This document shows positions 3,257-59,627 of a stretch of DNA of 64,000 bases, piece by piece. Each line of letters begins with the position of its first letter. The stretch's first letter is position 1. Source of the DNA: Patescibacteria group bacterium. Its GTDB lineage: Bacteria > Patescibacteriota > Patescibacteriia > UBA2591 > JAQUPP01. The position numbers and the translations under genes were made by a program. Below the pieces are notes generated by a model. That model was not told the origin of the DNA, did no database searches, and saw only the letters and a program-made list of their open reading frames with translations. The stretch lies in contig JAQUPP010000002.1 of NCBI GenBank assembly GCA_028716665.1, positions 203,717-267,716 on the forward strand. The letters are read 5' to 3'.

Positions 3257-4891
3257 ATGTCATCTACACTCAAAAACAACGCATATCACATCCTTGGACT
3301 AGATACTTCTGCTAGTGAGAAAGATATTCTTAAACGCTCAAAGGAGATTATTAATCGTCTTAAGGCTGATGACACTCCTGACTACGATTTAGATATTGGA
3401 TTGTTTAAAGATTTTCGGACAGAGGATGCAGTAAAAGATGCCCTGCAGCGACTCCAAGCTTCCAAGAAACGGATCAAAGAATATTTCTTTTGGTTTCAGA
3501 TAGCAGATAGCGTCGATGAGCAGGTACTGGGTCTGTTTAAATTTAAAGATTACTTGAATGCCATTCGCACTTGGCAGAATGTGGCCGAAGGTCAAAGTAC
3601 GAAAGCTTTCTCTTATAAGAAGAATCTTGCTATTTTGTATTGCCTTGTACTCTCTGCCGAGGATGATAAAGACTATCTAAGAAGTTCCTTAGTTGCATGG
3701 AAAGAACTTATAGACTCAGATAAATTTTGGACTTTTTTTTCTGAAGTCTACAAACTTCATGATGAACAAACTGCCAGCGAAGATATTATTTTTGATTTCA
3801 AAAAGCATGTAGTAAGTTATCTGGCCGATATTTATACGGATTTATATCAAACCCATAAAAATGTAGATTATATTAGTCAATTTCAAAAAGTTTTTTCAGT
3901 AAAAGGTGAGCGAATAGAAAAAAACGTTTTAGAACCAGCATACCAAATGATTAATAATGCCGTTGATGAACTTGAAAAAATGGAAGTGAGTAAGGATAGT
4001 ATATTTGATAAAGAAGAGTCAGAAACAATCAAGAGGCTTATTACTACAATACAGAAGGAACTCAATCAACTGATTGATTTAAGACTCTATGACGATAGTC
4101 AGACCAAAATAATGCGGGATCGCTCGGCTAATGCCTTACGATCTATTGCTTTGGATTTACACAATAACTTAAGCGAGCTTGATAAATCTCGAGGACTTTT
4201 AGAGGTAGCAATTAAGTTCGCTGGTATGGAATCCTTGAAATACGAACTTCAAGGTCAACTCGAACAAATCCAAAAAAATATCAAAGACGATGCAGAAAAT
4301 TCTCTTACCATAGACGTACCGGGCACGTTTGGGAGAGGTACGGTTATTTTTAAGAATAACTATCTTGAATACAATAACAAGAAAATATTCTATAAAGACG
4401 CGACAAGTATTTCTTATCATGCCCATTCGCAGTCAATAAACTTTATTCCGGCTTCACAATCGTTCAGTTACATGGTTGCTTCGCCAAATGAGACTATTTC
4501 ATTCTCATTTGGAACTACCCTCTATATTGGTCACAAAACAATGCAAGAGGTGTGGGGAAAGTTGATTGGGCTTTCAGAGGGACTAATTGAGTCACATATT
4601 ATAGAAAGTATGGTCGATCAAATTTTTGATCGCGATAAACCCATAACCATTGGTCGTATTGAATTCTCCAAACAAGGATATTCACAAACCAAATCCAAGC
4701 TATTTGGCAAGAGCGAGAAAGAGATAGTTTACTGGACGGATACTATTTACACCCCAAAGTTCAGTTCCGGAATGGTAGTTTTATGGAAAGATAAAAACGG
4801 AGTGAGTCAACAATTTACCACAATAGCGATGTCGACGCCAAATGCGGTTGTAATACCAGGGTTAGTTAAAGCATGCATTAATCGTCTATAA
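3257..4891 (+). CDS. J-like domain protein (degenerate HPD->TPD) with a large helical C-terminal domain
   Basis: The N-terminus 'AYHILGLDTSASEKDILKRSKEIINRLKADDTPD' aligns to J-domain helices I-II and the HPD loop, with His replaced by Thr. The gene starts 6 bp after the Hsp70 stop. It has no DnaJ zinc finger or G/F region. Confidence 0.65.
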   Translation: MSSTLKNNAYHILGLDTSASEKDILKRSKEIINRLKADDTPDYDLDIGLFKDFRTEDAVKDALQRLQASKKRIKEYFFWFQIADSVDEQVLGLFKFKDYLNAIRTWQNVAEGQSTKAFSYKKNLAILYCLVLSAEDDKDYLRSSLVAWKELIDSDKFWTFFSEVYKLHDEQTASEDIIFDFKKHVVSYLADIYTDLYQTHKNVDYISQFQKVFSVKGERIEKNVLEPAYQMINNAVDELEKMEVSKDSIFDKEESETIKRLITTIQKELNQLIDLRLYDDSQTKIMRDRSANALRSIALDLHNNLSELDKSRGLLEVAIKFAGMESLKYELQGQLEQIQKNIKDDAENSLTIDVPGTFGRGTVIFKNNYLEYNNKKIFYKDATSISYHAHSQSINFIPASQSFSYMVASPNETISFSFGTTLYIGHKTMQEVWGKLIGLSEGLIESHIIESMVDQIFDRDKPITIGRIEFSKQGYSQTKSKLFGKSEKEIVYWTDTIYTPKFSSGMVVLWKDKNGVSQQFTTIAMSTPNAVVIPGLVKACINRL

Positions 4892-17684: not shown

Positions 17685-19082
17685 ATGAAAAAAGTCTTTT
17701 CATTTTTGGCGATAGCTGCAATTCTTTGCAGCTCGATGGCTTATGGTACCTGGCCAATGTTCCAAAGAAATGCAAAACACGATGGAAGTGGACCAGCCGG
17801 ACCGGAGACAAATAATGTCAGTTGGTCTTTAAATTTAGGGACCACCTGCGGATTATTTTCTTCACCGATCAGTGATTCGTTTAATGGTGATGAAAGAATA
17901 TTTCTCGGCACCCAAAAGGGTGTGTATGAAATAAGTTCTCAGGGAGGTCTGATTCAAAAAATAGATACCGGTTATGGAACAGAAGTGTCAGTGGCTGTCC
18001 ATGATAGTACGATTTTCTTTTGCTCTAAAGATTCTTTGATTAAAAAGAATCTGACAGACAGCACAAAGAATTGGTCATATTATTTGGGAGCCAACCCTTC
18101 GGCACCAACTATTTTCGGCGGAAATATTTATGTTTACGCCAATAATAAACTCTGGTGTTTTGTTGATACCGGACTTAGCTGGGTGACCGTAACTTTAGAC
18201 AAAGGAAATGATAAAAGCGTTTCACCGGCAGTTGATGACAGTGGTAACATTTATGTTGCTACTCTCTCAAATCCGGCCGCTTATTATGATTTTCTTTTAT
18301 ATGTCTATAATCCAAACGGAACAATGAAATGGGGATATACAGCCTTAACAGGTGAACCAACGGGTGTTCATGGAACACCAACAATTGGTCCTCATGGTGA
18401 AGTTCTAGTTTGGACTTATCCAACACAGAGTTGGCCTTCAAGTCTGTACTGCATAAATGAATCAGGGAGACTTTGGCAAAAATCATCGCCGAAAATTCGT
18501 TATTCAAGTGTAGGAATATTTGGAGACACGATTATTTATTGCGGAGATAACGGAATTACGGCTTGTCTTTTGTCTGATGGTAGCACTGTTTGGAACTATG
18601 CTTTAGCAGGTCCGATCACAATTTCTTCCCCAGCCATTGGTGCTGATGGAACAATTTACGTCGGCAATGATGCAGGCAAAGTTTTGGCAGTTTCCAAAAA
18701 TGGAACTTTGTTATGGGAATATGACACCAAACAAGGACCTCTTGGAAGCCCGTCTATCGGTCCCAATAAGACGCTCCGCATCAATTCTTTAAGCGGCATA
18801 TTGTATGTTTTTAAACAAGCAGTAGGGGTCGCAGAAAAAGAAAAAATTGAAAAAATGGTAACAGTGTCTCCGACCGTTTCAGCCACTAACTTTGAAATTC
18901 AAGCTCCGGAAAGAGCTATAAAGAAAGTGTATGATATAGCCGGTAAACTGGTTAAAACCATAGGGAGCTCAAGTTGGGATGGGACAAACGAATTAAACAA
19001 GAAGTTATCGAACGGAATGTACTTTATTAACGTAAGCGTAGGTGGAGCTACGGTTACGAAGAAGATAATATTGATGAGATGA
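17685..19082 (+). CDS. Secreted PQQ-like beta-propeller protein with a C-terminal T9SS-type/FlgD-Ig-like sorting domain
   Basis: Signal peptide 'MKKVFSFLAIAAILCSSMA' and repeated 'G.iY.g..dg.l.a' propeller blades. The C-terminus 'VYDIAGKLVKTIGSSSWDGTNELNKKLSNGMYFINVSVGG.TVTKKIILMR' matches the secretion C-terminal sorting-domain pattern. Confidence 0.7.
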   Translation: MKKVFSFLAIAAILCSSMAYGTWPMFQRNAKHDGSGPAGPETNNVSWSLNLGTTCGLFSSPISDSFNGDERIFLGTQKGVYEISSQGGLIQKIDTGYGTEVSVAVHDSTIFFCSKDSLIKKNLTDSTKNWSYYLGANPSAPTIFGGNIYVYANNKLWCFVDTGLSWVTVTLDKGNDKSVSPAVDDSGNIYVATLSNPAAYYDFLLYVYNPNGTMKWGYTALTGEPTGVHGTPTIGPHGEVLVWTYPTQSWPSSLYCINESGRLWQKSSPKIRYSSVGIFGDTIIYCGDNGITACLLSDGSTVWNYALAGPITISSPAIGADGTIYVGNDAGKVLAVSKNGTLLWEYDTKQGPLGSPSIGPNKTLRINSLSGILYVFKQAVGVAEKEKIEKMVTVSPTVSATNFEIQAPERAIKKVYDIAGKLVKTIGSSSWDGTNELNKKLSNGMYFINVSVGGATVTKKIILMR

Positions 19083-39315: not shown

Positions 39316-42315
39316 ATGCCAGAAAACGAAATTATTTCTAAAATTATAGAAGAATTGAATCCTCGGCAAAAAGAGGCTGTTACTCATGTTAACGGCCCCT
39401 TAATTATAATTGCCGGAGCAGGTACGGGAAAAACCAGAGCCATTACTTATCGCATTGCTTGGTTGATTTTAAGCGGACAAGCAAAACCGGAAGAAATTTT
39501 GGCCGTTACTTTTACTGATAAAGCCACTCAAGAAATGGAAGAACGGGTGGATAAATTATTGCCTTATGGTTATGTTGATATTTGGATTTCCACTTTTCAT
39601 TCTTTTTGCGAAAGAGTTTTGCGAGATTATGCCATAGAAATCGGCCTGCCTATTGATTTTAAATTGCTTGATACGGCCGGGCAGTGCTTTTTGGTCCAGA
39701 AAAATTTTGATCGTTTTGATTTGGATTATTATCGTCCGCTTGGCAACCCGACCAAATTTATTCGCGAACTGGTAAAACATTTCGGCCGGGCCAAAGATGA
39801 GGTTATTTCGCCGAAAGAATATTTGGAATATGCTCAAGGTTTGGAAATGGATAACGATAGATCAATGTCTGACAATTTGGTCAAAGGAGAGGCAGGCAGA
39901 ATCAAAGAAGTGGCCAATGCTTATTACACTTATCAGCAATTATTATTGGATAACGGCGCTTTGGATTTTGGCGATTTGATTAATTACACCATTGAATTAT
40001 TTTCAAAACGCCCGGAAATTTTGGAAAAATACCGCAAGAAATTCAAATATATTTTAGTGGATGAATTTCAGGACACCAATTGGGCGCAATATAAATTGCT
40101 TCAAATGCTTGCCCAACCGGAAAACCTGTCTGACCGGCAGGCAGGTAATATCACGGTCGTAACCGACGATAAACAGGCGATTTACCGATGGCGCGGCGCG
40201 GCTTATAATAACGTGTTTCAATTAAAAAAAGATTTTCCAAAATGCAAAATTGTTTTCTTGGATGAAAATTATCGTTCTCGGCAGGCGATTCTTGATTTGG
40301 CTTATAAATTTATTGAACAAAATTATCTTGAAGACAAAGATTCAGGCGTAAAATTCAAGGGCTTGTTAAGCAAAAATTTAAAATCAACCCGAAAAGGAGA
40401 AGCGGAAATCGCGCATATTCACGCCAAAACGCAGGAAGAGGAAGCAAAAGAAACAGTTAAAAAAATTATAGAACTAAGAAAATTAAACCCAAAAGCGAGT
40501 TGGAACGACTTCGCCATTTTGGTCAGAGCGAATAATCAGGCGGAAATTTTTTGCCAAACTTTGCGTTGGAATAATATTCCTTATCAATTTTTGGCCAGGA
40601 CCGGATTATTTTCAAAACCGATTGTGATGGATATTTTGGCTTATTTGAAACTTCTTGATAATTATCACGAAAGTCCGGCTGTTTACCGCATTTTAACTTC
40701 GCCGATTTTTTTTGATGAACTTCCGAATCAAGATTTGATTAATTTGACTTATTGGGCAAATCGAAAAAATTGGTCAATTTATGAAGCCATTGCCAAAGTT
40801 TCAACTGTTCCGAATATTTCACCAAAAGGAATCGAAGAATTGAATAAAGTTTTGGTCTGGATTGAGAAACACACTCAGCTGGCAAAAAAAGAAAATGCCA
40901 GCAAAGTTATTTACGCTTTTTTGGAAGACACCGGTTATTTGAAACTTTTATCCGAATCGGCCGAAAAAGGCAATGAACAAAATATTGAAAATATTTTTTG
41001 GCTGCGGCAATTTTTCAATAAAGTTAAAAATTTTGAAGAAGTCAATTTGGATAAATCAATTTCCAATTTTATCCAGATGATTGATTTGATGCTGGATGCG
41101 GGGGACACGGGTGCGGTCGCGACTGAGGCCGAAGAGAGCGGTCCGGAAACAGTCAAAGTTATGACCATTCACGCCGCCAAAGGATTGGAATTTAATTGGG
41201 TTTTTGTCGTTAACTTGGTTGATCGCCGTTTTCCAACCACCGAACGGCACGAAGCCATTGAAATACCGCCGGCTCTGATTAAAGAAATTATTCCCGAAGG
41301 CGATATTCATTTTCAGGAAGAACGGCGTTTGTTTTATGTCGCCATGACCAGAGCCAAAGACGGATTATTTTTAACTTCTGCTGAAAATTACGGCGGCAAA
41401 ACAGTTAAAAAGTTTTCCAGATTTTTACATGAATTGGGTTTGATTGATAAAAAATTTCCGCCCGAGCCGATTCCTTCTGTCAAAGATTTGCGCCAATTTT
41501 TGGCTCCGAAAGAAATAATGGTTTCATCAAAAAGTGATTATCAATTGCCGACCAAATTCAGTTTTACTCAGTTAATGGCTTTTGAAACTTGTCCGCTTCA
41601 ATATAAATTCGCTCATATTTTAAAAATTCCCAGAAAAGGAAAAGGTAGTTTGGTTTTTGGCCAAAGCATTCACAACACACTTCAGAAATTTTTACAAAAG
41701 TATCTGGAATTAAAAGATGTGAAACAGGCGGAATTGTTTGTCACGTCCGGCAAAAAGAAATCAAAAAAAGAAATAACTTTCAAAGATTTAATTCAAATTT
41801 ATAATGAATGTTGGATTGATGAATGGTATGAAGATAAAAATAATCAGGATGAATACAAAGAAAGAGGAAAAAAGATTTTGAAACTTTTCTACGATAATTT
41901 CATGAAAAATCCGCCAAAAATAAAATCATTGGAACTCCCGTTTAATTTTAAATTGGGGGAATACGCGTTGAAAGGAAAAATAGACCGAATTGACGAAGTT
42001 GAAGGCGGAATAGAAATCATTGATTATAAAACAGGCAATTTAAAAGAAAAACTGAATGCGAATGAAAAGTGGCAGCTTTTGATTTATCAATTGGCTCTTA
42101 GATCTTTATTTCGCGAACCGGCAGTGCGTTTGACTTATTACTATTTGGAAACAGGGGATAAGATTTCATTTTTAGGCGATGAAAAAGAACTTGAAGAAAT
42201 TGAGGAAAAAATCAAAAAAATTATTAAAGAAATCAAGCAAAGCGAATTCCCGCCTAAAGCTACTAAGTGCCAATGGTGCGATTTTAAAGATATCTGTGAA
42301 TACAAAGCTGTTTAA
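39316..42315 (+). CDS. UvrD/PcrA-family SF1 helicase fused to a C-terminal RecB/Cas4-like PD-(D/E)xK nuclease with Fe-S cysteines
   Basis: Walker A 'IIAGAGTGKTRAIT', 'ILVDEFQDTN', 'VMTIHAAKGLEF'. C-terminal nuclease 'DRIDEVEGGIEIIDYKTG'. Cys ligands 'ETCP...CQWCDFKDIC' (C-x2-C-x5-C). Confidence 0.85.
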   Translation: MPENEIISKIIEELNPRQKEAVTHVNGPLIIIAGAGTGKTRAITYRIAWLILSGQAKPEEILAVTFTDKATQEMEERVDKLLPYGYVDIWISTFHSFCERVLRDYAIEIGLPIDFKLLDTAGQCFLVQKNFDRFDLDYYRPLGNPTKFIRELVKHFGRAKDEVISPKEYLEYAQGLEMDNDRSMSDNLVKGEAGRIKEVANAYYTYQQLLLDNGALDFGDLINYTIELFSKRPEILEKYRKKFKYILVDEFQDTNWAQYKLLQMLAQPENLSDRQAGNITVVTDDKQAIYRWRGAAYNNVFQLKKDFPKCKIVFLDENYRSRQAILDLAYKFIEQNYLEDKDSGVKFKGLLSKNLKSTRKGEAEIAHIHAKTQEEEAKETVKKIIELRKLNPKASWNDFAILVRANNQAEIFCQTLRWNNIPYQFLARTGLFSKPIVMDILAYLKLLDNYHESPAVYRILTSPIFFDELPNQDLINLTYWANRKNWSIYEAIAKVSTVPNISPKGIEELNKVLVWIEKHTQLAKKENASKVIYAFLEDTGYLKLLSESAEKGNEQNIENIFWLRQFFNKVKNFEEVNLDKSISNFIQMIDLMLDAGDTGAVATEAEESGPETVKVMTIHAAKGLEFNWVFVVNLVDRRFPTTERHEAIEIPPALIKEIIPEGDIHFQEERRLFYVAMTRAKDGLFLTSAENYGGKTVKKFSRFLHELGLIDKKFPPEPIPSVKDLRQFLAPKEIMVSSKSDYQLPTKFSFTQLMAFETCPLQYKFAHILKIPRKGKGSLVFGQSIHNTLQKFLQKYLELKDVKQAELFVTSGKKKSKKEITFKDLIQIYNECWIDEWYEDKNNQDEYKERGKKILKLFYDNFMKNPPKIKSLELPFNFKLGEYALKGKIDRIDEVEGGIEIIDYKTGNLKEKLNANEKWQLLIYQLALRSLFREPAVRLTYYYLETGDKISFLGDEKELEEIEEKIKKIIKEIKQSEFPPKATKCQWCDFKDICEYKAV

Positions 42316-42644: not shown

Positions 42645-42789
42645 TTTATTACCCTCCTTTTATTATAAATAATAGCACATTTTTTTGTTCTTGTCAAGAG
42701 ATATTGGAGTGCTATAATAATGTTATTATTTTAAATTCTATATTCTCCGCCCAAGGCGGACCAGCCTCGGGCTGGTAACTTTTAAACTT

Positions 42790-43173
42790 ATGACCCTAAA
42801 AAAATATCTCAATTTAATGACAATTCTAACCATTATTTGTTGGCTGGCTTGGGTGGCGGTAATTTTTTTTATCAATCCGAGAGGGCTGGGACTGGTTGGT
42901 TTTATTTTATTCTATTTCAGTTTATTTTTGGCTATTTTGGGCGCGGCCTCACTTCTTGGTTTTATTATCAGAACAAGATTGAATTTAAAACCGATTTTTG
43001 TTCAAGTGGAATTGGCTTTTCGCCAGGGGATTTGGCTGGGACTAGTGATTGTCTCCATGCTGATTTTGAAAGGGCTTGATCTTTTGCGTTGGTGGAATTT
43101 TTTATTTTTAGTTTTGTTCTTCGTTGTTTTGGAATTTTTCTTTTTATCTTCTCAAAGGAAATATAAGATTTAA
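42790..43173 (+). CDS. Small polytopic membrane protein
   Basis: Three to four hydrophobic helices. Confidence 0.5.
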   Translation: MTLKKYLNLMTILTIICWLAWVAVIFFINPRGLGLVGFILFYFSLFLAILGAASLLGFIIRTRLNLKPIFVQVELAFRQGIWLGLVIVSMLILKGLDLLRWWNFLFLVLFFVVLEFFFLSSQRKYKI

Positions 43174-43179
43174 AATAGT

Positions 43180-43587
43180 ATGAAGTTAATTTATAATTGG
43201 CTTAAAAAAATTTTACAGAGTTTGAAATTGACACCCAGAAAATCGGTTAAAGGATTAGAAAAAGTTATTGCCGTGAAAATCATAGATATTAAACCGCATC
43301 CAAATGCCGACCGATTAAGAATTGTCACTGTGGATACGGGCGAGCAAAAAATGGAAATAGTTTGCGGCGCGCCAAATGTGGAAATAGGCCAAATGGTTCC
43401 TTTGGCTCTTAAAGGAGCGAAATTGCCTTGCGGCATTGAAATTAAAGAAAGCGTTATTCGGGGCGTCAAATCAGAAGCAATGCTTTGCGCCAAAGACGAA
43501 TTAGGCTTGGGCCAGGATCATACCGGTATTTATATTTTGCCTCAGAAGGCGAAAATAGGCGAGAGAGTTGATAAATTTTTAAGATAA
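43180..43587 (+). CDS. Stand-alone tRNA-binding domain protein, homologous to the PheT N-terminal (B1/Myf-like) domain
   Basis: 'HPNADRLRIVTVDTGEQ..EIVCGAPNV..G..V..A..GA.LP.G.EIK...IRGV.SEAMLCAKDELGL' aligns with E. coli PheT residues 40-150 or so. Confidence 0.75.
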   Translation: MKLIYNWLKKILQSLKLTPRKSVKGLEKVIAVKIIDIKPHPNADRLRIVTVDTGEQKMEIVCGAPNVEIGQMVPLALKGAKLPCGIEIKESVIRGVKSEAMLCAKDELGLGQDHTGIYILPQKAKIGERVDKFLR

Positions 43588-43600
43588 GTAAATAAAAAAT

Positions 43601-44743
43601 ATGCAAAGAAATATTATAATAAAAAACGAAAAAGAAAATACTTTAATTGAAGAAATTAATAAAAGAAGTGATATTAAAGCCGAAAGAATTAAAAGATTAT
43701 TAAAGCTTCCGGATTTGACAAAAAAAGAAAATTCTCCTGTTAAAATTTTGGTTGATCAGATATTGAAGCTGCCCAGATTCAAAGATTTTGATTTGGTTGA
43801 TTTTCCAAGAATTGTTACGGTTAAAGATAATTTTGACCTTTTAAACACCCCAAAAGACCACCCGAGCAGAAAAGAAACAGATACTTATTATGTTACAGAT
43901 GAGTATGTTTTAAGAACGCAGATGACGGTCATGTGGTCTTTTTACTTGAAAGACCCCGAAGTTTTGAAAAAATTAGAAACAGATGGCCAAATAGAGGCTC
44001 TCTCAACAGGAATAGTTTTTCGCAAAGACGCAATTGATAGAAGCCATTATCCGGCATTTCATCAGATCGACGGATTGGGTATTTATAAAAAATCTCAAAA
44101 AATTATTACGGTGAAGGAGTTAAAGGATGTTCAAATTGATTTGGCAAAAGGTATTTTTGGTCCGGATATTGAATATAACTTTATTGTTGATTCTTTTCCT
44201 TTTACAACTCCGTCAGTTGAAATGGATATTAAATTTAACGGGGAGTGGATGGAAGTGAACGGAGCAGGCCTGGTGCATCCGCAAGTTTTAAAAAATTTTG
44301 GATTGGATCCGGAAATTTATAACGGTTGGGCTTTTGGATTTGGAGACAGACTAGCGATGATAAAAATGGGAATTCCTGATATCAGAATTTTGTGGTCAGA
44401 TGATCCGAGAATCACCAGTCAATTTAAAGACATAAACAGCAAGTTTAAAGAAGTCAGCAAATATCCCGCAACCACAAGAGATATTTCATTTGTCATTGAT
44501 AAAAATATAAATTTGAATAATTATTACGAAATTGTAAGAGATTTTGCCGAGAACTTGATTGAAGAAGTAAAATTTTTGGATAGCTACGAAAATGAAGAAA
44601 AATTCGGCAAGGATAAAAAAAGTTATACGTTCAGAATCGTGTATCGTTCACCGGAAAAAACTTTAACCAATGAGGAAATAAATAAAATACAAGATGAGAT
44701 CAGACAGAAGACTGTACAAGATTTAAACGCAGTCTTGCGCTAA
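43601..44743 (+). CDS. pheS: Phenylalanine--tRNA ligase alpha subunit fused to a C-terminal PheT-type FDX-ACB anticodon-binding domain (monomeric-type PheRS architecture)
   Basis: Motif 1 region 'HPSRKETDTYYV', motif 2 'FHQIDGLG', and motif 3 'GWAFGFGDRLAMIKMG'. The C-terminal 95 aa 'YPATTRDISFVIDKN...KSYTFRIVYRSPEKTLTNEEINKIQDEI' matches the PheT B8/FDX-ACB domain. Confidence 0.85.
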   Translation: MQRNIIIKNEKENTLIEEINKRSDIKAERIKRLLKLPDLTKKENSPVKILVDQILKLPRFKDFDLVDFPRIVTVKDNFDLLNTPKDHPSRKETDTYYVTDEYVLRTQMTVMWSFYLKDPEVLKKLETDGQIEALSTGIVFRKDAIDRSHYPAFHQIDGLGIYKKSQKIITVKELKDVQIDLAKGIFGPDIEYNFIVDSFPFTTPSVEMDIKFNGEWMEVNGAGLVHPQVLKNFGLDPEIYNGWAFGFGDRLAMIKMGIPDIRILWSDDPRITSQFKDINSKFKEVSKYPATTRDISFVIDKNINLNNYYEIVRDFAENLIEEVKFLDSYENEEKFGKDKKSYTFRIVYRSPEKTLTNEEINKIQDEIRQKTVQDLNAVLR

Positions 44744-44781: not shown

Positions 44782-45732
44782 ATGTACGATATAGTTACAA
44801 TTGGCGGAGCCATACGCGATATTATTTTTTACACCAACGAAGGATTAGTGGTTAATAATCCGAATCCTTTGTGTGAAAAATTAATCGCTTTTGAATTAGG
44901 GGCTAAAATCTATACTGATGAAGCATATTGGTCATGGGGCGGTGGAGCCGATAATACGGGCGTTGGCGTGGCTAAATTAGGGCTAAAAACAGCTATTATT
45001 GTCAGAGTCGGCGCTGATGGGGAAGGCGATGAGCTGGTGAAATATTTTAAAAAACAGGGCATAGAAACAAAATTTATTCAACGCGACAAAAATATCCGCA
45101 CCGGTTTTTCGCTTGTTACGACTCTGAAAAATAAAAAAGCCCACACTATTTTTGTTTATCGCGGACCGGGCGAGAATCTTAATTCTTTGCCGAAAAATAT
45201 TTCCGCAAAATGGATTTATATTTCTTCTTTAAGCGCCAAATATTGGGAAAAAATGCTGAATCAGATTTTAAAATATAAAGCGATTAAAGCCTGGAATCCT
45301 TCAATTGTTCAACTGAAGACCGGTTATTCAAAGTTGGCCAAGTTTTTGAAAAAAATTGATGTTTTGATTCTTAATGAAGACGAAGCGAGAGAATTGGTTT
45401 TATCAGCCCAAAAAACAAAAGATTTGTCAATTAAACATTTATTAAAAAGAATTTATCAGATGGGGCCGAAAATTGTCGCCATCACTGCCGGACCAAAAGG
45501 AGTTTTTGCTTATAACGGCGATAAATTTTATTCGCACAAAATCAAAAAAGCTAAAGTCATAAATACGGTTGGGGCGGGTGATGCTTTTTCTTCCGGTTTT
45601 ATTGCCGGTTTGTTTTATGACAAAAATGATATTCAAAAAGCGCTTCATTGGGGAATTATAAACAGCGCTTCAGTGATTGCCAAGGTTGGCGCTCAGGAAG
45701 GATTATTAAATAAATCTCAAATTAATAAATAA
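44782..45732 (+). CDS. PfkB-family carbohydrate kinase (ribokinase-like)
   Basis: 'NTVGAGDAFSSGFIAGL' (GAGD anion hole) and an N-terminal Gly-rich motif. Confidence 0.8.
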   Translation: MYDIVTIGGAIRDIIFYTNEGLVVNNPNPLCEKLIAFELGAKIYTDEAYWSWGGGADNTGVGVAKLGLKTAIIVRVGADGEGDELVKYFKKQGIETKFIQRDKNIRTGFSLVTTLKNKKAHTIFVYRGPGENLNSLPKNISAKWIYISSLSAKYWEKMLNQILKYKAIKAWNPSIVQLKTGYSKLAKFLKKIDVLILNEDEARELVLSAQKTKDLSIKHLLKRIYQMGPKIVAITAGPKGVFAYNGDKFYSHKIKKAKVINTVGAGDAFSSGFIAGLFYDKNDIQKALHWGIINSASVIAKVGAQEGLLNKSQINK

Positions 45733-45733
45733 T

Positions 45734-46312
45734 ATGATTATAGAAATTCCAGTTGAAGTTTCAGCCAGACATATTCATTTAAGCCGCGAACATTTGGACG
45801 CGCTTTTTGGCGTTGGTTATGAATTGAATAATTTAAAAGAACTTTCTCAAAAAGGGCAATTCGCCACCACGGAAACGATTACCATTCAAACAGAAAAAGA
45901 TAAAATTGAAAAAGTGAGAATTTTAGGTCCGGTAAGAAAACAAACCCAGGTGGAAATTTCCAAGACTGATGCAAAGAAATTGGGTATTAATCCGCCCATC
46001 AGGCACTCCGGAGATTTAAGCAGTTCTGCCGGTTGCATGTTAATCGGGCCAAAAGGCACGGTTTTATTGAAAGAAGGAATTATTATCGCATGGCGGCATA
46101 TTCACGCTACACCGAAATATATGCAAGATTATAATTTGGACAGCAGAAAATTTGTCTCGGTAAAAATCAGCACTCCTTCAAGAAGCGTTACTTTTAATCA
46201 AGTTTATCTCCATATTGACCCGAGCTTTACGCCGGTTTTATGTTTGGATACTGACGAAGCCAATGCAGCCGGAATTGAAGGACCGATTTCGGGAGAAGTT
46301 ATTTTGGATTAA
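45734..46312 (+). CDS. pduL: Phosphate acyltransferase PduL (phosphotransacetylase-type)
   Basis: 'PVEVSARHIHLSREHLDALFG', 'VRILGPVRKQTQVEISKTDA', 'GIIIAWRHIHATP', and 'LHIDPSFTPVLCLDTDEANAAG' match the two PduL repeats. Confidence 0.85.
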   Translation: MIIEIPVEVSARHIHLSREHLDALFGVGYELNNLKELSQKGQFATTETITIQTEKDKIEKVRILGPVRKQTQVEISKTDAKKLGINPPIRHSGDLSSSAGCMLIGPKGTVLLKEGIIIAWRHIHATPKYMQDYNLDSRKFVSVKISTPSRSVTFNQVYLHIDPSFTPVLCLDTDEANAAGIEGPISGEVILD

Positions 46313-58985: not shown

Positions 58986-59195
58986 GAATAACTAATAAAT
59001 TTTGTCTCCGGACGTTAAGTCGGAGCTACAAAATTATTACCGAGCACTCAACACAGTTTATTTAAAATATTTCAAATATAATTATTATAACGAGTAATTC
59101 AGTAAAAATTTATAAATTATACTGAGTGCTCGGTACTCAAAATTATAGTTAAAAATTTTGCGTTTTGCGAACTTAAATTTTTAAATAATTTTTGT

Positions 59196-59627
59196 ATGTT
59201 TATTGGTGAATACCATTATACAATAGATGAAAAAAATAGATTGGCCGTTCCGGTCAAATTTAGAGCAAGCATTTTAAAGGGAGCAGTAGTGACTCGCGGA
59301 ATAGATGCTTGTCTTTTTTTATATCCTAAAAAAGAATGGGATAATTTAGCCGCTAAGTTGGCGGCAATGCCGATTAATAAATCCAAGACCAGAGCTTTTT
59401 CCAGATTAATGTTGGCTGGTGCGATGGAAGTGGAGCTTGATAAACAAGGAAGAATAAATTTACCTGATTATTTAAAACAATACGCGAGTATTAATAAAAA
59501 AATAGTTATTGCCGGACTTTATAATCGCTTGGAAATTTGGGATGAACAAGCTTGGGAAGAATATAAGAAAAAATCAGAAGAAGAAAGCACTGATATTGCC
59601 GAAGAGCTTGGGGGTTTAGGCGTGTAA
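59196..59627 (+). CDS. mraZ: Transcriptional regulator MraZ
   Basis: 'MFIGEYHYTIDEKNRLAVPVKFR' and the duplicated DXXXR motif. Confidence 0.9.
   Translation: MFIGEYHYTIDEKNRLAVPVKFRASILKGAVVTRGIDACLFLYPKKEWDNLAAKLAAMPINKSKTRAFSRLMLAGAMEVELDKQGRINLPDYLKQYASINKKIVIAGLYNRLEIWDEQAWEEYKKKSEEESTDIAEELGGLGV

Follow-up and report, generated by a model that had tools for sequence, protein, structure and literature searches.

A 64-kb stretch of DNA (hereafter the window; GC content ~34%), part of a 334-kb contig from a metagenome-assembled genome of a Patescibacteria group bacterium, was found to contain two adjacent open reading frames (ORFs), ORF A and ORF B, that together resemble a strongly reduced phenylalanyl-tRNA synthetase (PheRS). 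ORF B combines a PheS-type catalytic core with an FDX-ACB anticodon-binding domain in one chain, as in the mitochondrial enzyme, while ORF A consists of the free-standing N-terminal oligonucleotide-binding fold (OB-fold) of PheT. From architecture, residue conservation and gene order, we consider it probable that ORF B is a working PheRS of mitochondrial type, presumably monomeric and with a housekeeping role, which has displaced the pheS-pheT pair, and that ORF A is the OB-fold retained from that pheT. The features of the two genes are as follows (aa, amino acids; nt, nucleotides).

43180..43587, + strand: ORF A, 135 aa, OB-fold of the PheT N-terminus as a gene of its own (Pfam tRNA_bind, B2/EMAP-like), defined by profile matches
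43601..44743, + strand: ORF B, 380 aa, predicted mitochondrial-type PheRS in one chain, with a PheS catalytic core followed by FDX-ACB, defined by profile matches
43715..44425, + strand: class II catalytic core of ORF B (aa 39-275), Pfam PF01409
44456..44740, + strand: FDX-ACB anticodon-binding domain of ORF B (aa 286-380), Pfam PF03147
43740..44340, + strand: mosaic segment in ORF B (about aa 47-247), marked by a drop in identity to close relatives
44048-44050, 44201-44203 and 44207-44209: codons of ORF B residues 150, 201 and 203, respectively

Both reading frames are intact and lie on the same strand with 13 nt between them. Under the locus tags PHE59_02690 (ORF A) and PHE59_02695 (ORF B), both are named 'hypothetical protein', in the case of ORF B by the Prokaryotic Genome Annotation Pipeline (PGAP).

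Domain architecture of ORF B and ORF A

The initial annotation, which was made from the sequence alone, had described ORF B as a PheS carrying the C-terminal FDX-ACB domain of PheT, and the profile searches bear this out. Pfam tRNA-synt_2d (PF01409) covers aa 39-275 with an E-value of 2.6e-55, and FDX-ACB (PF03147) covers aa 286-380 with an E-value of 2.3e-26 and over the complete profile (positions 1-94 of 94), which removes the doubt, raised at that stage, that the extension might fail to match FDX-ACB profiles. The C-terminus also matches positions 692-798 of the NCBIfam model pheT_bact (TIGR00472) with 84.6 bits. No PheS N-terminal coiled-coil (PF02912) was detected in ORF B in the Pfam scan. 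A single polypeptide that unites a PheS-type class II module with FDX-ACB (B8), the defining layout of the mitochondrial-type monomeric PheRS, is thus present.

The comparison with the mitochondrial enzyme, likewise proposed initially, holds over the whole length of the protein. Human mitochondrial PheRS (mtPheRS; 3CMQ/5MGU) is the best solved relative of ORF B (E = 7e-55, 190 bits), while bacterial PheS stays at 135 bits. The alignment with the human enzyme runs from end to end through the core, the inter-domain linker and the anticodon domain. A Foldseek search also placed human mtPheRS first (E about 6e-24, roughly 390 aligned columns); the AlphaFold model used for it was built from a shallow alignment (predicted local distance difference test, pLDDT, 71) and served for a coarse fold match only. 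Like human FARS2 and yeast MSF1 (PheRS-M, TIGR00469; 3CMQ, 3TUP), ORF B consists of one chain with a PheS-type module and B8/FDX-ACB, and has no coiled-coil N-terminus, beta subunit or editing domain. It differs from them in being bacterial and cytosolic, with no presequence; moreover, eukaryotic mitochondrial PheRS has an insertion that splits the alignment in two stretches, whereas the fusion proteins of the Candidate Phyla Radiation (CPR) are free of it and are often preceded by a gene for a free PheT-derived OB-fold.

ORF A corresponds to the N-terminal ~135 aa of PheT only, in agreement with the original description of the upstream gene. It matches Pfam tRNA_bind with an E-value of 1.4e-18; its best NCBIfam match is pheT_bact, at positions 42-154 of 798 (135 bits), and its best match in the PDB is E. 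coli PheT, residues 44-151 (E = 3.5e-22), with 3BU2 matched as well. The protein begins with the PheT signature MKxxxNWLK, shows a 17-residue deletion in the N-terminal helix and ends exactly at the boundary where canonical PheT runs into the next domain. In Thermus nomenclature, the unit is more exactly the B2 domain (an EMAP-like OB-fold) plus a shortened N-terminal stub. ORF A is 65% identical to the N-terminus of a partial canonical PheT from Parcubacteria (P0134). Neither ORF A nor the tail of ORF B amounts to a canonical PheT, which is recognised by at least 402.65 bits with TIGR00472 and by the presence of B3/B4, B5, B6/7 and B8.

A lone tRNA_bind domain of similar size is also shared with proteins of the YtpR/Trbp111/CsaA/YgjH and Arc1p/EMAPII types. 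ORF A differs from these in that it is closest to the PheT N-terminus and keeps the MKxxxNWLK start. It exceeds the YtpR cut-off (NF045760; 110.2 bits against 100), but only over profile positions 72-184 of 185: the N-terminal half of YtpR is absent from it, and the PheT model scores higher. The scores with TapR (NF045867; 68.5 against 120) and the YgjH-type model (30.7 against 150) are below the cut-offs. More than 100 standalone homologues of ORF A were listed, 125-165 aa long and 45-58% identical, from bins labelled Moran-, Falkow- and Parcubacteria; all of them score best on the PheT N-terminus, pass YtpR on half of its profile and fail TapR. Among the 80 matches listed in a tRNA_bind scan of metagenomes, 76 were full-length canonical PheTs, from a variety of bacteria.

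Functional residues of ORF B

Residue conservation was assessed in 186 distinct family sequences, with residue roles taken from PMC3275996 and PMC7540514; the chain numbering of the human mtPheRS structure was converted to the published numbering by an offset of +8, checked on Thr235, Asp364, Phe366 and Ser375. The catalytic core of ORF B contains motif 2 Arg141, FHQxD (153-157), FPFT (199-202), Ala244 and motif 3 Arg250, and these residues are invariant across the family, except for position 201 (F or Y). They correspond to the Phe pocket and class II residues with established roles, Ala244 being the equivalent of Tth Ala314 (PMC3275996). The aromatic pair F199-P-F/Y201 followed by Thr202 is found in the fusion family as in the mitochondrial enzyme.

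In human mtPheRS, G34 of tRNA-Phe is read by Asp364, Phe366, Ser375 and Arg414 (PMC7540514), and these align with Asp327, Tyr329, Ser341 and Arg380 of ORF B. Within the family, D327 and S341 are invariant, R380 is present in 185 of the 186 sequences and position 329 is Y or F. ORF B thus possesses both sets of residues that characterise a mitochondrial-type PheRS, namely the Phe pocket (FPF-T, Ala) with the motif arginines and the Asp/aromatic/Ser/Arg tetrad for G34, both of which agree with those of the eukaryotic mitochondrial enzymes.

Residue 201 takes two forms across the family, Tyr in 95 sequences and Phe in 91. Residue 203 co-varies with it, being Asp with Phe201 and Val or Ile with Tyr201, and the states follow the core allele clusters.

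Comparison with SrmL

An important question is whether ORF B belongs to SrmL, the NCBIfam 'PheS-related mystery ligase' (NF051887), which is its best-scoring model. The match is full-length, but at 257.7 bits it is under the cut-off of 300, so ORF B is not an SrmL by curated score. It scores 241.3 bits with pheS_mito (TIGR00469; cut-off 258.35) and 178.3 bits with pheS (TIGR00468; cut-off 237.45), a model on which the canonical CPR PheS of contig L010 reaches 323.6 bits.

A genuine SrmL (400 bits on NF051887) was found on contig L066 of a Paceibacteria genome, at 17916-19031 on the minus strand, 7 kb from a 380-aa fusion gene. SrmL and ORF B share the overall layout, are nearest sister groups in the neighbour-joining (NJ) tree described below and occur in the same kind of genomes. 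In the SrmL group, however, the substitutions F199H, F153P and G221E are present and the G34-reading tetrad is lost, whereas ORF B keeps all of these positions. Because SrmL differs at the pocket and the tetrad and coexists with the fusion in L066, ORF B appears to be a PheRS-competent protein and SrmL a further diverged paralogue; SrmL probably acts as a ligase on a different substrate and would have arisen from within the fusion family. No paper describing a bacterial monomeric PheRS or SrmL was found in a full-text search, the coverage of which is incomplete.

Distribution and relationships of the fusion family

Comparison with related genomes, which had been proposed at the outset, showed that the fusion is by no means confined to this genome: at least 80 GTDB species-representative genomes of Paceibacteria carry a ~ 380-aa fusion protein, 67-83% identical to ORF B, in bins labelled Nealson-, Staskawicz-, Moran-, Taylor- and Wildermuthbacteria and Paceibacterota. 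The best 120 database clusters for ORF B are all about 380 aa long and 76-86% identical to it. For the fusion, identity has a median of 75%, whereas its neighbours reach only 35-55% in distant relatives.

Some fusion contigs with 71-83% identity bear the titles Nanoarchaeota archaeon, Bdellovibrionales, Gammaproteobacteria or Saccharibacteria (L018, L022, L023, L024, L051, L052, L063 and L090, together with many 'Candidatus Saccharibacteria' records). These titles probably reflect coarse or wrong bin taxonomy.

An exhaustive search of 50%-identity representatives with ORF B returned 275 clusters at E <= 1e-30. The nearest relatives outside CPR are metagenomic proteins such as P0241 (390 aa), an Oligoflexia protein (P0242, 52% identical) and the eukaryotic organellar enzymes of Salpingoeca, Pteridium and Vitrella. 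Several prokaryote-sized relatives (P0241, P0254, P0255 and P0262) pass the pheS_mito cut-off. In a rough NJ tree of the catalytic core, rooted on canonical CPR PheS and indicative only, the CPR fusion proteins, P0241, P0242 and the SrmL group form one clade, which is sister to a clade of eukaryotic enzymes and many proteins of 330-390 aa. In this tree, of the kind proposed initially, the fusion stands in a separate bacterial clade. As an indication, the tree gives no support to a recent transfer from eukaryotes to CPR.

Synteny and probable displacement of pheS-pheT

Two genes upstream of ORF A serve as anchors for the comparison of gene order:

39316..42315, + strand: UvrD/PcrA-type helicase with a PD-(D/E)XK nuclease domain, upstream syntenic anchor
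42790..43173, + strand: 127-aa hydrophobic protein, second syntenic anchor, ending 6 nt before ORF A

Canonical pheS and pheT occur in other CPR genomes (L009, L010 and L175). On L010, the order is helicase, 144-aa protein, pheS, NIF3, NUDIX and pheT; in the window, it is helicase (43% identical), 127-aa protein (42% identical), ORF A and ORF B. A second comparison involves L009, with the order SecD, SecF, 79-aa protein, pheS, IVP and pheT, and the contigs L006 and L174, on which SecD, SecF and a small protein (66/57/45% identical to L009) are followed by TyrS, a tRNA_bind gene and the fusion. On L174, the fusion is followed by LeuRS, and a 75-aa ORF stands between TyrRS and tRNA_bind, which is not the case in L006.

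The free OB-folds are 54-73% identical to the N-terminus of the resident PheT in the syntenic pairs, a similarity equal to or above that of the flanking genes; for ORF A and the PheTs of L010 and L009, the value is 54-58%. The fusion core, in contrast, shares only 26-34% identity with the resident PheS, and the FDX-ACB domain of the fusion about 27% with the resident B8. An OB-fold close to the resident PheT combined with a core far from the resident PheS points to displacement by an old fusion-type enzyme and not to a local rearrangement, and the locus is best read as one in which such an enzyme would have displaced the resident pheS-pheT pair. The term 'rearranged' PheRS, used in the initial annotation, is for this reason misleading: the fusion represents an old family common to mitochondria and other bacteria, distant in its core from CPR PheS.

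Compared with canonical (alpha-beta)2 PheRS, the locus has a homologous core, OB-fold and FDX-ACB and occupies the same position in syntenic relatives. It differs in that two pieces of the ~ 800-aa beta subunit are left, the OB-fold, now a protein of 135 aa, and B8, joined to the alpha core, while PF02912, B3/B4, B5 and B6/7 are absent at the locus.

These data suggest the following course of events. A pre-existing fusion-type PheRS would have taken over as the housekeeping enzyme in the Paceibacteria lineage, pheS and most of pheT would have been lost from their own locus, and the OB-fold of the resident pheT would have survived there, under selection, as a separate small protein (ORF A). In the resulting system, the PheS-like core of ORF B would activate Phe and transfer it to tRNA-Phe, and the fused FDX-ACB domain would read G34 of the GAA anticodon. 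As there would be no beta subunit, there would be no B3/B4 editing site. The most likely role of ORF A would be that of a helper that binds tRNA without specificity and works in trans, either with ORF B or more widely, comparable to Trbp111 or Arc1p.

Several further arrangements were noted on the compared contigs. The helicase, a ~ 130-aa protein and a standalone tRNA_bind gene are found on L171 (Falkowbacteria; 3610-4411) and L172 (OZ173682.1, 917 kb; 3597-4378), where no PheRS gene lies within 4 kb of tRNA_bind and a LysM/M23 peptidase is encoded downstream; a pheT relic thus appears to persist alone at the ancestral locus in these Falkowbacteria-type genomes. The Moranbacteria-like contigs L006 (3779-6592) and L174 (2521-8147) have a small synthetase cluster downstream of secDF, and their tRNA_bind genes just downstream of TyrS score 57-71 bits on TapR, under the cut-off of 120. 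The helicase of L010 (1-2188) carries an intein (Hint/Intein_splicing). On L009 (3482-7277), a 23S-rRNA-IVP-family gene lies between pheS and pheT, and pheT is split in four ORFs; the WWE3 locus L175 (5001-7246) keeps the order thrS-infC-rpmI-rplT-pheS-pheT, with pheT in two ORFs. The possibility of a free-standing editing module was considered and rejected: the short 'tRNA_bind + B3_4' proteins are canonical PheTs that are frameshifted, split or truncated at contig ends (L009, L010, L175). A profile search with partial CPR PheTs gave only short or partial proteins among the matches listed.

Gene linkage and canonical genes in the flanks

Another important question is whether canonical genes accompany the fusion. 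Canonical pheS, B3/B4 and B5 were absent both from the 64-kb window and from the 1.21 Mb flanking 80 fusion loci; the null result for the flanks is weak, as it covers ~ 15 kb per locus, and random placement of co-occurring genes would give only about 1.5 events. The minimised PheRS lacking the editing domain that was envisaged initially is supported by this result and by synteny, as a prediction at the level of the locus.

A tRNA_bind gene stands immediately 5' of the fusion, on the same strand and mostly with a gap of 10-22 nt, in 12 of the 80 species loci, and the same adjacency was found in L006-L008 and L174. In the 80 species loci, no tRNA_bind gene occupied any other position within 10 kb of the fusion.

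Alternative explanations

Certain observations weigh against a housekeeping PheRS with a retained OB-fold. ORF B is under every curated NCBIfam cut-off, including those of TIGR00469 and TIGR00468, and its structure model is mediocre in quality. Position 157, where mitochondrial and canonical enzymes have Glu (FHQxE), is Asp in all fusion members, the sole systematic residue difference between the fusion family and these enzymes. The zero canonical matches in the window and flanks are only weakly informative on the rest of the genome. As for ORF A, 68 of the 80 species have no tRNA_bind gene less than 10 kb from the fusion, and on L171 and L172 the relic tRNA_bind gene has no fusion within 4 kb.

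It could be supposed that ORF B is an accessory SrmL-like paralogue of PheS, acting on another substrate or in regulation, and that the real PheRS is a canonical alpha2-beta2 enzyme encoded elsewhere; the low curated scores, the 'hypothetical protein' call by PGAP and the canonical pheS/pheT genes of other Patescibacteria, including bins labelled Parcubacteria and Moraniibacteriota, would agree with this. We nevertheless regard it as unlikely, since ORF B, unlike SrmL, retains an intact and conserved Phe pocket and G34 tetrad, the fusion occupies the pheS-pheT position in two synteny comparisons, ORF A resembles a truncated resident pheT, implying the loss of the full-length gene, and a median identity well above that of the neighbouring genes fits an essential enzyme. 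Recent capture of a nuclear gene for mitochondrial PheRS from a eukaryote, which might be suspected because human mtPheRS is the best solved relative and eukaryotic sequences are among the top representatives, seems very improbable: in the rough NJ tree, the CPR proteins group with Oligoflexia, prokaryote-sized proteins and SrmL and are not nested in eukaryotes, they are without the eukaryotic insertion, E157D is common to the bacterial clade, and the family is spread over many Paceibacteria orders. An assembly artefact, or a pheS-pheT operon decaying by frameshifts, is hardly credible. Genes for pheT split by frameshifts do exist in some assemblies (L009, L175), but both ORFs are intact and conserved in length in independent assemblies from many studies, there is no trace of B3/B4, B5 or B6/7 either between the two or downstream of them, and a PheT N-terminus before a PheS core is the wrong order for a broken pheS-pheT. 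The frameshifted or misassembled pheT that the initial annotation had allowed for is likewise at odds with a 380-aa protein conserved in at least 80 species, the core of which shares only 26-34% identity with canonical CPR PheS.

The relation between the two ORFs is less certain. ORF A may have no special link to ORF B and be a general YtpR/Trbp111-like protein, its adjacency being a remnant of the old locus, and we give this alternative considerable weight while leaning somewhat towards the opposite. ORF A passes the YtpR cut-off, as do its homologues. A tRNA_bind gene is absent near most fusion loci, and L171 and L172 keep it apart from any fusion within 4 kb; therefore, a partnership of ORF A and ORF B is not obligatory in cis, and the arrangement may be inherited gene order. 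On the other hand, whenever the two genes are found less than 10 kb apart, their arrangement is head to tail without exception, mostly with the short gap described above, and this pairing holds across lineages with different other neighbours; moreover, the YtpR match covers only the C-terminal ~ 110 of 185 positions, and the best score is always that of the PheT N-terminus.

Mosaic structure of the catalytic core

The fusion gene shows an uneven pattern of similarity to its close relatives. On L012 and L048, the neighbouring proteins are 90-97% identical to those of the window, while the fusion proteins are only 83% and 74% identical, respectively. The fusion genes compared were L012 4031-5176, L048 10001-11203 and L011 2562-3704. 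Nucleotide identity to L012 and L048 falls to 57-85% over ~ 43740-44340 (aa 47-247), against mostly ~ 90% or above at the gene ends and in the flanks. At the protein level, the cores of these close relatives are 68-74% identical to that of ORF B; L012 shows 93% identity in the ends and 74% in the core. The best match to the ORF B core comes from L011 (87%), in which the ends are 78% identical. Core identity and end identity show almost no correlation over the 186 sequences (Spearman 0.16), with 28 pairs having ends >= 0.9 and core <= 0.78 and 17 pairs showing the reverse, and the cores form F201/D203 and Y201/(V/I)203 classes. This pattern suggests that the catalytic core has been exchanged repeatedly by homologous recombination between lineages.

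Other features of the window

Two further features flank the genes described above:

42691..42718, + strand: promoter-like site (TTGTCA, 16-nt spacer, TATAAT, extended TG; 11/12 consensus match)
44782-45732, directly 3' of ORF B: PfkB-family sugar kinase (Pfam)

The promoter-like site stands 5' of the gene for the 127-aa membrane protein, which matched no Pfam family, and a sequence scan detected no terminator-like sites between 42250 and 44900. The 127-aa gene, ORF A and ORF B might form one transcript, with which the promoter-like site and the lack of terminators are compatible. The PfkB kinase takes the place downstream of the PheS-type gene where pheT would be expected, as had been noted initially. 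It is followed by a PTAC (phosphate propanoyltransferase-family) gene, and the pair, spanning 44782-46312, is kept in the close relatives L012 and L048 (90-96% identical), with no evident link to PheRS. An Rfam scan of the window detected no tRNA, T-box or other Rfam element. A 100-aa antisense ORF within ORF A (43191-43493, minus strand), although 60% identical in L006-L008, was rejected as a gene, as it mirrors the conserved coding region.

A ~ 200-nt AT-rich element was found at 59000-59197, upstream of an ORF at 59196-59627. It includes a perfect 13-nt inverted repeat (TACCGAGCACTCA ... TGAGTGCTCGGTA) and has no Rfam match. A copy with 81.5% identity lies on L012 (3415-3610), between the 127-aa gene and the tRNA_bind gene, and a partial copy on L048 (9207-9240 and 9520-9582). 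A small mobile element, or one with a regulatory role, is conceivable.

Significance

A 2010 review attributes the heterotetrameric form of PheRS to every known prokaryote and names the mitochondrial enzyme as the sole monomer among synthetases with a class II core (PMC3275996). More speculatively than the reading of this one locus, a monomeric, editing-free enzyme might be the only PheRS of the class Paceibacteria, the PheS-B8 fusion might be an old bacterial invention and the source of both SrmL and the mitochondrial enzyme, and ORF A might be a trans-acting subunit, giving a 'split minimal PheRS'; we put this forward tentatively and consider it rather doubtful as a whole. If it is true, PheRS would no longer be an (alpha-beta)2 heterotetramer in prokaryotes without exception, and the mitochondrial enzyme would have been acquired ready-made and not assembled in eukaryotes. 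A bacterial lineage relying on the single-chain form would help to clarify the origin of mitochondrial PheRS. It would also explain why PheRS is missed by marker sets and annotation in such genomes, where PGAP reports a 'hypothetical protein' and the pheS and pheT models fail, and a compact 380-aa scaffold for PheRS engineering would become available. The mosaic core, for its part, suggests that alleles of an essential gene of translation have been exchanged in an unusual way. Finally, if the lineage relies on the single-chain form, it would provide a natural bacterial model of an editing-free PheRS, which would bear on Tyr and meta-Tyr mistranslation in ultra-small symbionts.

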